Shown here piece by piece: positions 24,001-33,000 of a DNA stretch of 64,000 nt. Made by a program: the position numbers. Source of the DNA: Candidatus Limnocylindrales bacterium. GTDB lineage: Bacteria; Chloroflexota; Limnocylindria; Limnocylindrales; CSP1-4. The DNA is taken from positions 2,322 to 66,321 of the forward strand of contig DATCPH010000076.1 of assembly GCA_036570185.1 (NCBI GenBank). The letters are read 5' to 3'. Numbering within the stretch: the first letter of the stretch is position 1; every line of letters starts with the position of its first letter.

Positions 24001-27000
24001 GTAGACCGGCACGGCATCCCACGGGATCCCACCGTTGAGGGCAACCGCGAGAGTGACCGCCGGGTTGAGATGGGCGCCGCTGATGGGTCCGGCCACGACC
24101 ACGCCGCAGAAGACGGCCAACCCCCACGCGAACGTGATGACGATCCAGCCGCTGTTCTGCGCCTTCGAGCGGTTGAGCAGGACCCCGGCGACGACGCCGT
24201 CCCCGAGCAGGATCAGCGTGCCCGTTCCCAACACCTCCGCCAGGAAGATCTCCAATGGATGCGCCATGTTTCACCCTCCACTACCACTAGACCGAACCTA
24301 GACGGCCGACGCGCGGGGTTCCCGCCCTCGAGAGGCAAAGAAAAAAGTCCGCGCCTCGGCATCACTGCCGAGACGGGACTTTTCACATCATGTCCCGAGG
24401 AAAGGCAAAACGGTTCTACTCCTCGGCGAGGATCGTTGTCAAGGGGCCCCGGGCCCGATTTCGATTCGGTTGCGGAATCGACGACAGAGCTTCGGCCAAT
24501 GCCTCCGCCGCGGACGGGCTGAGCGCGATGCTCTCAGCGAGGCGCAGACAGGACAACGCTTCGTCATAGCTGCCGATGAGCCCGTAGGCAAGGACGGGAT
24601 GCGGCAGGAGGTCCAGCTCGGCACGCGACATGTGCATCAGCACGAGGCCCGGGGTGATGACTGTGCCGACCCCCGGACGTCGGGGATGCTCGGCGAGCGA
24701 GCGTCGTAGCCCGGTCGAGTCCAACGCGAGACAGTGCACGAGGCCGAGCCCACCCAGATCGGCTACTCGGGCAGCGATTGCCGGACGTCGCGTCAGCACG
24801 ATCGCGATCCCGAGCCACTGGACGACGAAATCGACTGCCGCTTCGTCGGCATTGAGCCCGTGCACCGTGTCGAAATCGAGCGCGAGCGCCGGACCGGCAT
24901 TCGCGGCGCACTCCACGACGGTCGCAAGGTCGATGTCGCGCAGCATGAGACCGGGGTTGAGGCCCTCGAGGCCCTTGGGCATGTGGCGGCCCGCCTGAGC
25001 AACCAGGACGCGCGGCATGTGAGGCCGGCCAGGATCGGGCGCCAAGGGATGACGGGCGAGCGGCGAGCGGTCGGTCGCCAGCGAACCCTCAGCCATTGAA
25101 CGTCCACAGGTTCGCAGAACTCGTGGTCACGCCCACCGCCCCTGCCGCGAGGATGGCCCGGACGTCGGCCTCGGTGCGGACGAACCCCCCCGCCAGGACC
25201 GGTACCCGGAAGCCCGGCATGAGGTGCGCAACCGATGGCAGGACCACGCCAGGGAGAATCTCGACAATGTCCGGATCCGAGCGACTGATCGCACTGAGGG
25301 CTCCGTCGAGATGGCTTCGGCGTGAGAGCAGCAGTCGCTCGACGGCGACGGCGCCTTCCTGCCGGATCACCGAGATCAGCTGGCCGTGGGACGTAATGAT
25401 CGCGTCCACCCCGGAGCGGGCGAGCCAGCTCACCCCCGCCGCGTCGGCCCGCACCCCGTCGATCAAGTCGAGGTGCGCAGCGACGAGCTTGCGGGCATCG
25501 TGCGCGCGTCTGACCGTGGCGCCAAGCAGCAGCCCGTTGCCACGCAGGATGAACAGGATCGGGACGCGGCTTGCGAGCGCGGCATCCAGCGTCGCGTCAG
25601 ATACGATCGCCGCGCAGCACGGCGCATCCGCGAGGCGGGCAACGAAGTCGTTCGCAGAGGGCGGCGCGTATGTCACCATCGCCAGCCCGGGATTCACCTC
25701 GCATGATGCTTCTTAGCCGCTGCGGAAGCATAGCTCGCGCGTCGACCCGGCCCCCGAATGACGGCTGGATCCGCAGGGTCCGGGCGGGCGCCGTGGCCTT
25801 CGCCGAGATGGCTTTTCAGGGCTCTCCCACGACGAGCGCCGCGTTCAAGCCGCCGAAGCCAAACGACGTCGAGAGCACCCGCCGATAACGGCCCGGTCGG
25901 CCAACGCGCAGGAGGCCGGGCAGGCGAGCGGCGATCTCCTCATCGGGTACCTCGAGGTTGATCGAGGGCGGAGCCCAGCTGTCGCGGATCGTCAGGGCGG
26001 CGATCGCCGCCTCGATCGCGCCGGACGCGCCGAGCGGATGCCCGTAAAAGGCCTTCGTCCCGCTCACCGGAACAGTCTTCGCCCGATCGCCGAGGGCCAG
26101 GACGATCGCACGGGCTTCGGCCAGGTCACCGATCGGCGTCGACGACGCATGGGCGTTGACGTAGTCGATCTCGTCGGGCAGGTCGCCGCCGTTTTCGAGG
26201 GCGATGCGCGCGGCGCGGGCCGCTTCGATGCCATCGGCCCGAGGCTGGACCATGTGGTGGCCGTCGGACGTTGCGCCGTAGCCTCGAACCTCGGCGTACG
26301 GCAGCGCGCCCCGGCGTTCGGCGTTCTCGGCGAGCTCAAGGATCAGGAGGGCCGCGCCCTCGCCCATGACGAAGCCGTCTCGACCGGCGTCGAACGGCCG
26401 GGCGGCACGTTCTGGCTCTTGATTGCGGTGGGTGGACAGGGCCCGAATGATGTCGAAGGCGCCGAACGCGAGCGGGCTGAGCGGGACTTCGACGCCGCCC
26501 GCGATCGCCGCGTCGATCTCCCCTGATCGGATAGCGCCCAGCGCCTCGCCGATCGCGACCGTTCCCGACGCGCACGAGTTCGCTGTCGAGAGGATCGGTC
26601 CGCGGATGCCCATGGCGATCCCGAGATTGGCCGGCGCCGCCCCGCCAAAGACGGCCAGGGCAAGGGTGGCGGAGACGGAGCGCAATCCGCGCGCGAGGTA
26701 CCGCTCGTGCTGCTCCTCGGCGTAGGCGATGCCGCCGAGCGCGCTGCCCAGGTAGATTCCCGTGCGCTGGGCAAGGGCGTCGCCGAACTGGCCCGGATCG
26801 AGCCCGGCGTCGGCGAGGGCGAGGCGCCCGGCGACGAGCCCGAACTGGCTGAATCGGTCGAGCTGCCGGGCGGTCTTGGGGTCCATGTAGGCGAGTGGGT
26901 CGAAGTCATCGACCTGGGCCGCAACCTGCGAGCGGAAGGGACTCGGGTCGAAACGATCGATCCGCCGAACCGGCGAGGTCGTGGCGCACAGGCCGGCGCG

Positions 27001-30000: not shown

Positions 30001-33000
30001 CGATCGATCTCGACGGCGAGCTGATCGGCACGATCGAGTACTACGAGAAGAGCGAGCCCGATTACCGCCACGCCAGCATCGACCTGTTGGTCGACACGGC
30101 CCACCAGAATCAGGGTTTCGGGTCCGAGGCGATCCGGACCCTGGCGCATTACCTGTTCGAGGTCCGGGGCCACCACCGGCTGACCATCGATCCGGCGGTT
30201 GCCAACGAGCGCGCCGTCCGAGCGTATGGTCGGGTCGGATTCCGCCCGGTCGGGATCATGCGGGACTACGAGCGCGGCCTCGACGGCTCCTGGCACGACG
30301 GCCTGCTGATGGACATGCTCCCCGGGGAACTCACGTAGCCCGACCCCTGAATCTGAGCCCGTGCGCGAGACGAAACGCGTCTCGCGGCCGATCCGGGCCG
30401 AACCGCCTTAGCCCGAACGTCGAGTCTGCCGGCGCCCCAGCCGGTATTCGACGGAGGGCCTGGCGATGTTCGACAGCACCTACCCGGCGTTCGAAGGCGC
30501 GTACGCGGCCCACAGGATGCCCCTGTTTCGATGGCTCGTCGCGACGACGCGCGATGCTGACATGGCAGAGGACGTCACGCAGGAGGCGTTCATCCGGCTC
30601 GCCCGCGAGCTGGACGCCGGACGGCCGCCGGACAACGCCGGCGCCTGGCTGCACCGCGTCGCCGCCAACCTCGTGGTCAGCGCAGCACGTCACCGCGTGG
30701 TCGTCGACCGCGCCGCTGACCGTCTGCCGTCGCCGTCGGAGTACCCCTCGCCCGAGGGCCTGGTCGTCGAAACGGAACGGTTCACTGCCCTTCGGGCTGC
30801 ACTTGCCGAGCTGTCCCCCGTCGAGCGGCAGGCGGTGCTCCTCTCCGCCCAGGGCTTTCTCGGATCGGAGATCGCGGCGCGAAGCGGCCGATCCGAGGCG
30901 GCAGTGAGGACCCTCATCTGCCGGACGCGCGCAAAGCTGCGGGCTCGGCTCTCGACCGAGGGCCTCGCCGCCTAGTTCGAACTCTCGCCAGCCGACGAGC
31001 CATCCAGGGCAGCGGGCCTGCTCGTATGCGGCTGCGAATCTCAGCCCGATTCGGGTCGAGAAACGGGGGGTTGCGGCCGTATCATCGGCGCGCTGTGGTC
31101 GAGGCCGCCGGACGTCGAGCGTTCATCGGACGGGACGCTGAACTGACCCGTCTCCGCGGCCTCTTCGCGGTCGCGAGCGCCGGCGATGCGCGAGCCCTCG
31201 TGATCGGCGGCGAAGCCGGCGTCGGAAAGACACTACTCGTCAGCCGGTTCACGCAAGAGGCCGCCCTTGGCGGCGCAACGGTCCTGACGGGCGCCTGTCT
31301 CGAGGTCGGTGCCGGAGGCATCCCCTACGCGCCATTCGTCGAGGCGCTCCGAGCCCTGGTTCGAGCCACCGACCCGGCGCGGCTGCCGGCGCTGCTGGGT
31401 CCGGGTCGCGGCGAGCTCTCCCGACTCCTTCCGGAACTGGCGGCCCGAAAGGCCGAAGTGCCCGCGCCCGAGCCGGATGCGACCGCCCAGAACCGCCTCT
31501 TCGAGCTGATCCTCGGGGTCGTCGAGCGACTGGCGGCGGCTTCTCCGGTCGTGATCGTCGTCGATGACCTGCAATGGGCGGATCGGCCATCGCGCGATCT
31601 CCTGGGGTTCCTGATCCGCGGCCTGCGGTCGGCGCGCGTCCTGACGGTTCTGACCGCACGCAGCGAAGATCTCGCGGGCCGCTCTTCGGTCCTCGGGTTC
31701 GTCGCGGAACTGGAGCGCGACGACAACGTCGAACGGCTCGAGTTGCGCCGCTTCGGCCGAGCCGAGGTCGCGCGCCAGGTGGCGGCCCTGACGGGAGGGG
31801 AAGCGGATCCGCGATTGGTCGATCGCGTCTTCGAGCGCAGCGATGGCAATCCCTTCTACGCGGAACAGCTGGTCGCGTCAGTCGAGGCCGGTGATGGCGG
31901 GGACCTTCCGCCGCGGCTTCAGGACATCCTTCTCGCCCGGATCGCCGAGCTGTCGCCGGCAGCCCAGGAGGTCCTTCGCGCGGCCTCGGCCGCGGGCCGC
32001 CGTCTCGATGACCAGCTCCTGGGAGCGGCCGTCGAGCTGACGCCGCGCCAGCTTCGCGAGCGCCTTCGGGAAGTCGTTGCGAGCGGCATCCTGGTGCCGG
32101 TCGCGGGCGCCGACGGGCAGCCCGCCTACGCCTTCCGGCACGCACTCCTCCAGGAGGTTGTCTATCGAGAGCTCTTCGCCGGCGAGCGCGTGCGACTCCA
32201 CGCAGCGTTTGCGGCCGCGCTCGAGGCGCGCGGCGAGACCGACAGCACGGCAGTCGAGCCCGCAGAGCTTGCCTATCACTGGGACCTTGCGAGGGAGCCC
32301 ACGAAAGCCCTGCCGACCATCGTCGCGGCGGCTCGGGCGGCCGAACGGGTGTACGCCTATTCGGTCGCGCTGCGGCATTTCGAACGGGCCCTCGAGCTCT
32401 GGCCGCGGGTCCCGAACGCGAATTGGATCGTCCCGGGCGGCCAGGTCGACCTGATCCGGGGCGCGGCCGAGGCCGCCATGCTGGCCGGAGATGGCAAGCG
32501 GGCGATCGAGTTCGGGCGCGCCGCCCTCAACGCGGTGGATTCCACAGCGGATCCGGGTCGCGCCGCGGTCCTCCAGGAACGGCTTCGCTGGTTCCTGTGG
32601 GAGGCAGGCGAGCGGCGCGCCGCCGAGGAGGCCGTGCGAGCGGCGGAACGCCTGATCCCCATCGAGCCTCCGTCGGCGGCTCGGGCGGGAGTTCTTGCGC
32701 ACCTCGCCGGGATCGAGCTGTTCAGCGGCCAGTACGCGGAGTCGCGCGACCACGCTCGGGAAGCGGTCCGGGTGGCGCGTGTGGCGGGGGCTGCCAACGA
32801 GCAGGCACTGGGACTCGGCATCCTGGGATGGGATGAAGCGGTCCTCGGGGACGTCGAGTCTGGCGTCGCAACCTTCCAGGAAGGGCAGCGGATCGCCGAG
32901 ACGTTCGGCTCGGTCGAGGGGATCGCTCTCGGCGCAACGAATCTCGCGTCGCTCTTCGATCGCGTCGGCCGAACCGCCGACGCATTGGACGTCGCGCTGA

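Follow-up and report, generated by a model that had tools for sequence, protein, structure and literature searches.

The 64,000-nucleotide stretch of Candidatus Limnocylindrales contig DATCPH010000076.1 analyzed here (the window) comes from the genome of an uncultured soil member of the Chloroflexota, class Limnocylindria, and carries four consecutive minus-strand genes that encode, in order of transcription, a class I S-adenosylmethionine (SAM)-dependent methyltransferase, a flavoprotein, a helix-grip SRPBCC protein, and a stand-alone FabF-type β-ketoacyl-acyl carrier protein (ACP) synthase (KAS) (Table 1). An initial annotation had described this region as a compact operon with a possible role in lipid or quinone tailoring, and the arrangement of the four co-directional genes, which are joined by overlaps or short gaps, agrees with that description: they form one translationally coupled operon. 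The gene families named in that annotation also agree with our profile hidden Markov model annotation against Pfam and NCBIfam, which assigns the methyltransferase to Methyltransf_25/11/12. When the junctions are read from the sequence, the methyltransferase and flavoprotein genes share a 4-nt GTGA overlap, and the SRPBCC and KAS genes share another if the KAS begins at GTG 27090, or are separated by 2 nt if it begins at ATG 27084. The flavoprotein and SRPBCC genes are separated by 28 nt; thus, the 2- to 4-nt spacing originally ascribed to all of these genes holds at the first and last junctions but not at the middle one. The methyltransferase reading frame (28875..29753) remains open up to a GTG at 29753, but the ATG at 29630 is the likely start because gene callers choose it and because the resulting N terminus aligns with that of the Gimesia maris methyltransferase Mtr. 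Codon-position GC content backs all of the reading frames (third-position GC of 0.77 to 0.85, in a window of about 70% G+C).

Table 1. Coordinates of the four-gene operon and of other features in the 64,000-nt window
Feature	Position	Strand	Description
Methyltransferase (first gene)	28875..29630	minus	Class I SAM-dependent, 251 aa; Pfam Methyltransf_25/11/12
Flavoprotein (second gene)	27637..28878	minus	413 aa, FAD_binding_3; GxGxxG, GADG, and GDAAG motifs
SRPBCC (helix-grip) protein (third gene)	27087..27608	minus	173 aa, Polyketide_cyc and Polyketide_cyc2
KAS, stand-alone FabF-type (fourth gene)	25816..27084 or 27090	minus	422 aa (ATG 27084) or 424 aa (GTG 27090); ketoacyl-synt N and C domains
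GNAT	29823..30338	divergent from operon	AAC(6')-like
ECF sigma factor and LuxR-family regulator	30466-34214	plus	Beyond GNAT; regulator of ~1000 aa (AAA_16, TPR, GerE)
Glycerol-utilization block	14656-25679	minus	glpF (MIP), dhaK, dhaL, glpK, dhaM-like EIIA-man, HPr, glpA/B/C-like
GlpP-like genes, tandem	25089..25679 and 24416..25096		G3P_antiterm
Open reading frame with GH94 domains	2-7132	minus	>2377 aa, cut by window edge; two GH94 supersandwich domains and a glucoamylase-like domain
MoxR/DUF58/VWA row	8213-11153	plus	MoxR-type AAA ATPase, DUF58 protein, VWA protein
PlsY-type glycerol-3-phosphate acyltransferase	12897-13856	minus	N-terminal extension of ~120 aa
Open reading frame antisense to glpK/dhaL	19638-22157	plus	839 aa
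CoxE-like VWA protein	47961..49376		
MobA-like NTP transferase	50543..51967		Fused to methyltransferase

The operon does not travel with the usual partners of a condensing enzyme. As previously noted for this region, no ketoreductase, dehydratase, or enoyl reductase gene lies near the four genes, and Escherichia coli ACP, FabG, and FabD queries gave no tblastn match, either in the window or across related loci totaling about 1.2 Mb. Similarly, no acpP, fabD, or fabG gene was found within 8 kb of the cassette in about 90 loci, and the 64-kb window contains no second KAS- or ketosynthase (KS)-like open reading frame. Having one KS but neither a chain-length factor (CLF) nor an ACP, the operon is indeed neither a fab operon nor a canonical type II polyketide synthase (PKS). 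Scans of positions 25600 to 30000 yielded no promoter-like or terminator-like sites. An identical KAS protein with identical neighbors is present on contig DAIRGW010000015.1 of a metagenome-assembled genome (MAG; GCA_036794345.1), and the same KAS and neighbors are found on JGI metagenome contigs (Ga0120111, Ga0120149, and Ga0120151) and in Logan run assemblies.

We surveyed the distribution of the cassette with a flavoprotein-alignment scan restricted to one genome per species, which, among the matches listed, gave 80 loci, nearly all with record titles that name Limnocylindria or other Chloroflexota. The nearest homologs (the best 120 matches) are named Candidatus Limnocylindrales or Chloroflexota, and of the 600 matches listed from the genome collection, 482 encode a flavoprotein relative, so that there are at least 482 of them. 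In tblastn synteny comparisons, all 64 Limnocylindria species loci with sufficient flanking sequence have the methyltransferase, flavoprotein, SRPBCC, and KAS genes in this order. In about half of these cassettes (30 of 64), an additional MutT-like Nudix gene, absent from the window, follows the flavoprotein gene and precedes the SRPBCC gene. Close packing is also conserved: across the 80 loci the median methyltransferase-to-flavoprotein, flavoprotein-to-Nudix, and SRPBCC-to-KAS spacings are all −4 nt, and the 4-nt overlap between SRPBCC and KAS recurs in 61 of 67 Limnocylindria loci. At one locus (L074), the SRPBCC-KAS pair is kept together 2.5 kb away from the methyltransferase, flavoprotein, and Nudix genes. 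Where it is present (at loci within L007 to L088, e.g., L007:11202-11672), the Nudix gene overlaps the flavoprotein stop codon by 4 nt. We considered whether it could encode an isopentenyl diphosphate isomerase and ruled this out, as it gives generic MutT-like matches only.

The same four-gene operon is found in five further lineages (L092, on a 1.28-Mb contig; L093/L094; L095; L096; and L099), which include other Chloroflexota, an Entotheonellia MAG (L095), and a Nitrospinae-labeled MAG (L096). The 4-nt SRPBCC-KAS overlap is retained in all of them except L096, where a 10-nt gap takes its place. All four cassette proteins diverge together across lineages, and the KAS is the most conserved of the four (70 to 81%, versus 49 to 68% for the others). 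In contrast, the genes flanking the cassette vary by locus, with a DUF2461 gene downstream in some and an aldehyde-dehydrogenase cluster upstream in many. Because the flanks differ, and because the GNAT and GlpP-like genes that adjoin the operon in the window recur only in contigs identical to it, the conserved unit consists of four genes rather than the five originally proposed; the divergent GNAT gene is present as described, but we rule it out as a member of the operon. In long-read “MFD” Chloroflexia MAGs (L008, L014, L016, L024, L056, L064, L066, L068, L082, L090, and L091) the cassette genes are split by frameshifts, which is an assembly artifact and not pseudogenization. Two KAS representatives considered as candidate divergent forms (P0164 and P0236) are likewise frameshifted long-read assemblies of ordinary cassettes. 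The four-gene arrangement is conserved far beyond chance and constitutes a widely conserved operon spanning several phyla. The combination of genes is not described in any paper of the literature that we searched.

Clues to the function of the cassette come from its first two genes. The methyltransferase of the window has only one strong NCBIfam match, to the unnamed equivalog NF004851/PRK06202 (148 bits; next family, 28 bits), and four other cassette methyltransferases that we tested match NF004851 alone, at 148 to 156 bits. Operons for phenolic lipids and quinones are known from several bacteria, of which hidABC comes from cyanobacteria, mtr-fdo-t3pks from Planctomycetota, srsABC from Streptomyces griseus, and pkqABC from Mycobacterium smegmatis and Streptomyces. 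These operons are widespread and are ordered methyltransferase, FAD oxidoreductase, type III PKS; hidABC gives rise to hierridins, and srsABC/pkqABC to alkylresorcinol-derived quinones (PMC10896814, PMC8086630, PMC6836626, PMC9927152). Recombinant HidA methylates 5-pentadecylresorcinol (PMC6836626). For comparison, we rebuilt the G. maris Mtr and Fdo proteins line by line from DNA damaged by optical character recognition (OCR) in the supplement of PMC10896814. The rebuilt Mtr matches NF004851 at 219.5 bits and shares 37% identity over 161 aa with the window methyltransferase (BLASTP E value, 4e-24). These similarities suggest that the cassette methyltransferase, though it scores under the family cutoff, is to be grouped with the PRK06202-type methyltransferases found in the alkylresorcinol operons hidABC, srsABC, and pkqABC. 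The menaquinone side-chain context suggested in the initial annotation is not supported: UbiE/MenG models score only 19 to 23 bits versus 148 for PRK06202, and Rv0560c matches the methyltransferase only at an E value of 0.007.

The likeness extends to the operons as a whole. Both types place the methyltransferase first, the flavoprotein second, and the enzyme or enzymes for the carbon skeleton last; both are compact and lack ACP, ketoreductase, and dehydratase genes; and the flavoproteins of both fall in the geranylgeranyl-reductase-like superfamily with matching family-score profiles. They differ in that the cassette contains no chalcone-synthase-like (type III PKS) gene, its last two positions being filled instead by the SRPBCC gene, which resembles aromatase/cyclase (ARO/CYC) genes, and the FabF-type KAS gene. 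In addition, both the methyltransferase and the flavoprotein of the cassette are divergent, and the extra Nudix gene of about half of the Limnocylindria copies is a further difference. We conclude that hidABC/srsABC/pkqABC is the closest known analog of the cassette, which the earlier reading of this locus overlooked.

The flavoprotein belongs to the geranylgeranyl-reductase/variant-B halogenase/class A monooxygenase superfamily. The GG-red-SF model is the top match of both the window flavoprotein (115 bits) and G. maris Fdo (118.9 bits), each below the cutoff of 158.8, and for both proteins the QhpG, CmlS, and MenJ models score far under their cutoffs. Compared directly, the two proteins give an hhalign probability of 99.2% at 24 to 26% identity, a level of identity at which their likeness is one of superfamily. 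The original description of this protein as geranylgeranyl-reductase/MenJ-like holds for the superfamily and for the GADG and GDAAG motifs, but not for MenJ itself, whose model gives 60 bits against a cutoff of 700. The Cys of the reductase PCGG motif is replaced in an RAGG sequence with an invariant A41, and the reductase YxWxFP motif is absent (YVGLAP). The DG and GD motifs are kept. When the protein is aligned to the halogenase CmlS, AYVGLAP occupies the position of GWVWMIP and VQPIP that of VKKPS, such that Q69/P70 stand in place of the halogenase Lys, and P70 does not vary within the family. An AlphaFold2 model (pLDDT, 82.6) is nearest to 3NIX, the halogenases Bmp2, FasV, ChlB4, and CndH, and archaeal geranylgeranyl reductase. 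Thus, with the signatures of both reductases and halogenases missing, the flavoprotein appears to be neither a MenJ nor a halogenase. By analogy with what has been proposed for HidB and SrsC, a role as an aromatic hydroxylase or oxidase is plausible.

The nearest relatives of the SRPBCC protein, in both sequence and fold, are the helix-grip ARO/CYCs of type II PKSs (TcmN, WhiE, and ZhuI), which bears out the original characterization of it as polyketide-cyclase-like. In the single pairwise HMMER alignment used for residue correspondence, W26, Y33, W69, M94, and W98 match the TcmN/WhiE pocket positions W28, Y35, W65, M91, and W95, and H86 and H113 stand at the positions of TcmN R82 and Q110. 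Eight residues (W26, H32, Y33, W69, H86, M94, W98, and H113) do not vary across phyla, and three more (R55, R81, and E158) are nearly invariant, being conserved in at least 90%. The invariance of H32, H86, and H113 suggests that the pocket may be catalytic rather than passive.

The KAS is a FabF-type condensing enzyme with an intact Cys-His-His triad, as first described. C171, H312, K344, H349, and the gate residue F410 align with C163, H303, K335, H340, and F400 of E. coli FabF, and 188 clade members show little or no variation at these positions. The protein has the same length as FabF, shares 41% identity with the E. coli enzyme, and finds its best PDB matches in Thermus FabF (334 bits) and then Bacillus FabF, with actinorhodin KS at 270 bits. 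Its affiliation with housekeeping FabF, on which the earlier interpretation of the locus turned, is nevertheless mixed: the window KAS passes the PRK07314 subfamily cutoff (410 versus 387 bits) but falls below that of the TIGR03150 fabF equivalog (423.5 versus 493.75). Other cassette KASs score 491.4 (L092) and 542.4 (the Entotheonellia copy, L095, which passes) on the latter model. In an exhaustive cluster search of 1.8 billion representatives at 50% identity, orthologs (79%) are followed by the single-domain clusters P0127 (56%) and P0133 (53%) and then by generic FabFs (41 to 47%). Pairwise KAS identity is 80% within Limnocylindria, 53 to 54% between Limnocylindria and the other cassette KASs, and 51 to 63% among those other KASs across phyla, whereas any cassette KAS is only 41 to 47% identical to generic FabFs. 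By these identities the cassette KASs form a separate clade that spans phyla. That this clade accompanies the cassette into phyla that are not related speaks for a dedicated enzyme and for transfer of the genes together. A search for clade-specific active-site substitutions singled out one position only (M338L, E. coli precursor numbering); thus, nothing in the KAS sequence points to altered chemistry. The large P0127 family carries the name “beta-ketoacyl-ACP synthase family protein [Chloroflexota]”, and also has members in Nitrospinae- and Candidatus Entotheonellia-labeled MAGs. P0127/P0289 KAS genes (L089:8940-10211 and L097:5475-6746; 54 to 56% identical to the window KAS) lie between PTPS and luciferase-like monooxygenase genes.

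The homology of the methyltransferase and flavoprotein, together with the gene order, links the cassette to operons for phenolic lipids and quinones. Based on these observations, we tentatively propose that the operon could direct the synthesis of a methylated, oxygenated phenolic lipid of the alkylresorcinol, alkylhydroquinone, or alkylquinone type from fatty-acyl-ACP, independently of a type III PKS. We regard this as a real possibility that falls short of being probable; the alkyl or aryl lipid head group suggested at the outset is still the best guess. Homology and gene order are the basis on which we infer the substrates, the aromatic product, and each of the chemical steps. In the proposed pathway, the dedicated FabF-like KAS would take a fatty acyl-ACP from primary fatty-acid synthesis and extend it with malonyl-ACP without reduction; with no ACP of its own, the cassette would rely on the housekeeping ACP and FabD. 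The co-translated ARO/CYC-like SRPBCC protein, which probably forms a complex with the KAS, would fold and aromatize the β-keto chain to a resorcinol or resorcylic-acid ring; alternatively, it might condense two β-keto or enoyl intermediates, as in dialkylresorcinol synthesis. The PRK06202-like methyltransferase would then methylate the ring, and the flavoprotein would hydroxylate, oxidatively decarboxylate, or aromatize it to give a hydroquinone or quinone. A more specific version of this proposal, which we consider somewhat unlikely as it stands, is that a KAS/ARO-CYC complex turns acyl-ACP directly into an alkylresorcinol or alkylquinone and that this compound, once methylated and hydroxylated, acts in the membrane as a redox lipid (a polyketide quinone), both in Limnocylindria and in the Entotheonellia- and Nitrospinae-labeled lineages.

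Two known systems resemble parts of this pathway. Like type II PKSs with TcmN/WhiE/ZhuI-type ARO/CYCs, the cassette places a FabF-like KS next to a helix-grip ARO/CYC-like protein with a 4-nt overlap, and its SRPBCC protein keeps the pocket residues equivalent to TcmN W28, Y35, W65, M91, and W95. KSα and CLF genes are often coupled by the same 4-nt overlap. Unlike those systems, the cassette has a single KS with neither a CLF nor a dedicated ACP, its KS scores higher with FabF (334 bits) than with the act KS (270 bits), and its SRPBCC protein does not conserve the catalytic Arg69 of TcmN. To our knowledge, the lineages that host the cassette are not type II PKS producers. The DarAB/StlCD systems for dialkylresorcinols and stilbenes offer a second parallel, in that they are very small gene sets that need a separate aromatization enzyme, and their stand-alone ketosynthase uses ACP-bound intermediates of primary fatty-acid synthesis to form a resorcinol, as we envisage for the cassette. 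Dialkylresorcinol pathways do draw ACP-bound intermediates from primary fatty-acid synthesis, but DarB/StlD represent a distinct ketosynthase class in which elongation has been lost in favor of head-to-head condensation (PMC6836626). The cassette KS, compared with DarB by description only, is instead an orthodox FabF type in both Pfam and NCBIfam, with the catalytic residues of elongating KSs intact. Moreover, the characterized dar locus encodes its own ACP, and the cassette does not.

Several observations weigh against a phenolic-lipid pathway. The cassette has no characterized member and no known product. In sequence the KAS is an orthodox FabF, with one position separating its clade from generic FabFs; the Entotheonellia KAS exceeds the fabF equivalog cutoff (542 bits); and the KAS sub-lineage P0127/P0289 occurs alone, with the other three genes not within 5 to 8 kb. 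With neither a CLF nor an ACP of its own to help, repeated extension without reduction would take place in competition with FabG. The essential TcmN Arg69 is not kept, its counterpart in the window SRPBCC protein being T73, so that any catalytic machinery of this protein is not identical to that of TcmN. The window methyltransferase lies under the PRK06202 cutoff (148 versus 243 bits), the flavoprotein shares only 24 to 26% identity with G. maris Fdo and is closer in sequence to CmlS, and the G. maris comparison sequences themselves come from error-ridden OCR text.

Among other explanations, the main rival is a fatty-acid tailoring module, in which the KAS and SRPBCC proteins would act like FabB and FabA, a dedicated elongating synthase and a dehydratase/isomerase that together introduce or keep a double bond, and the methyltransferase and a reductase-type flavoprotein would install a mid-chain methyl branch. 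Methyltransferases and flavin reductases are paired in this way for 10-methyl fatty acids (BfaB/BfaA). The orthodox FabF sequence of the KAS fits such a role, as does the fact that ARO/CYC proteins are mechanistically dehydratases, and a module acting inside type II fatty-acid synthesis would need no ACP, ketoreductase, or thioesterase of its own. However, the methyltransferase is not of the cyclopropane/mycolic-acid synthase family and groups instead with the ring-methylating enzymes of alkylresorcinol operons, and the flavoprotein lacks the reductase Cys and YxWxFP motif. We also know of no SRPBCC protein that substitutes for FabA or FabZ. We consider fatty-acid tailoring unlikely. Another explanation is that the KAS is the housekeeping FabF, merely located in or co-transcribed with three genes of independent function, such as quinone or small-molecule tailoring. 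Its standing as the most conserved of the four proteins, its PRK07314 score and FabF matches in the PDB, the high-scoring Entotheonellia copy, the near absence of signature substitutions in its clade, the related lineage that stands alone, and the lack of a second KAS in the 64-kb window all speak for this explanation. Against this, the KAS is coupled to the SRPBCC gene by a 4-nt overlap in most Limnocylindria loci and in other phyla, a pair that stays intact even where the rest of the cassette is separated (L074); acpP, fabD, and fabG are missing from the surrounding 8 kb in about 90 loci; and the window copy falls under the fabF equivalog cutoff. Its clade also tracks the cassette across phyla with higher identity than to generic FabFs, a pattern that fits joint transfer into genomes already having a FabF. 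We judge a housekeeping role for the KAS improbable.

Two further explanations center on the flavoprotein. One is menaquinone tailoring, with a MenJ-like side-chain reductase, a methyltransferase for the ring or side chain, and an SRPBCC protein serving as a COQ10-like quinone chaperone. Homologs in JGI records are labeled “menaquinone-9 beta-reductase”, with the SRPBCC protein labeled as RatA/COQ10-type; the methyltransferase has weak matches to UbiE/MenG models; and the SRPBCC protein matches PF03364, a family that also contains COQ10. The MenJ score, far under its cutoff, and the missing reductase Cys and motif led us to reject this explanation, and the weak UbiE/MenG and Rv0560c matches of the methyltransferase likewise speak against it. 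It would also leave the translationally coupled KAS unexplained, and we regard it as very improbable. The other casts the flavoprotein as a halogenase for a substrate tethered to a carrier protein, such that the operon would yield a halogenated lipid. Its best PDB sequence match is indeed CmlS (E value, 5.8e-21), and Bmp2, FasV, ChlB4, and CndH are among its top fold matches. The replacement of the halogenase WxWxIP motif by YVGLAP and of the catalytic Lys by Q69/P70, with P70 invariant, argues strongly against this explanation, and we have discarded it as extremely improbable.

The surroundings of the operon in the window were also inspected. Downstream of the KAS gene, after 118 to 136 nt, a glycerol-utilization block begins, and it includes tandem GlpP-like genes, an adjacent paralog pair that is unusual for a Chloroflexota genome. 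A PlsY-type acyltransferase gene adjoins glpABC and a ketopantoate-reductase-like gene. The open reading frame antisense to glpK and dhaL has a third-position GC content of 0.69, versus 0.88 for the genes opposite it, and is almost certainly a shadow reading frame of a high-GC genome rather than a gene. Upstream and divergent from the operon are the GNAT gene, genes for an extracytoplasmic function (ECF) sigma factor and a LuxR-type AAA_16 regulator, and carAB; the sigma factor/LuxR pair is not kept beside the cassette in other species. Farther away, the truncated reading frame with two GH94 supersandwich domains looks like a cyclic β-1,2-glucan synthase or phosphorylase, and the window also contains a row of MoxR, DUF58, and VWA genes, a separate CoxE-like gene, and a MobA-methyltransferase fusion (Table 1). 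In many other Limnocylindria loci (e.g., L007:2839-6778), the divergent upstream cluster consists of two aldehyde-dehydrogenase-like genes, one of about 440 aa and one truncated to about 312 aa, together with a second SRPBCC gene of the Polyketide_cyc2 family and a gene for a YibE_F or EamA membrane protein. We considered this Aldedh-Aldedh-Polyketide_cyc2-YibE_F cluster as a member of the cassette and rejected it: it lies at a variable distance (0.3 to 5 kb), is absent from the window, and appears to encode ordinary aldehyde dehydrogenases.

Taken together, the operon and family assignments are well supported, and the specific mechanism is offered tentatively, as one that may hold but that we would not yet call probable. 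Automatic annotation of these genes as “beta-ketoacyl-ACP synthase II”, “menaquinone-9 beta-reductase”, and “RatA toxin” is misleading. Should the cassette instead tailor fatty acids, it would still represent an unstudied lipid-modification system common to several phyla. If the phenolic-lipid pathway is correct, the cassette would add to type III PKSs and DarAB a third enzymatic way in which bacteria make phenolic lipids and quinones, one that combines a fatty-acid-type ketosynthase with a cyclase of the type II PKS kind. Its four genes would also be a minimal system with which to engineer alkyl-aromatic lipids directly from acyl-ACP. Limnocylindria sequences abound in metagenomes from soil and fresh water, and with the cassette in every examinable Limnocylindria species locus, its product would then be a candidate for unknown membrane lipids or alternative electron carriers in a major uncultured lineage.

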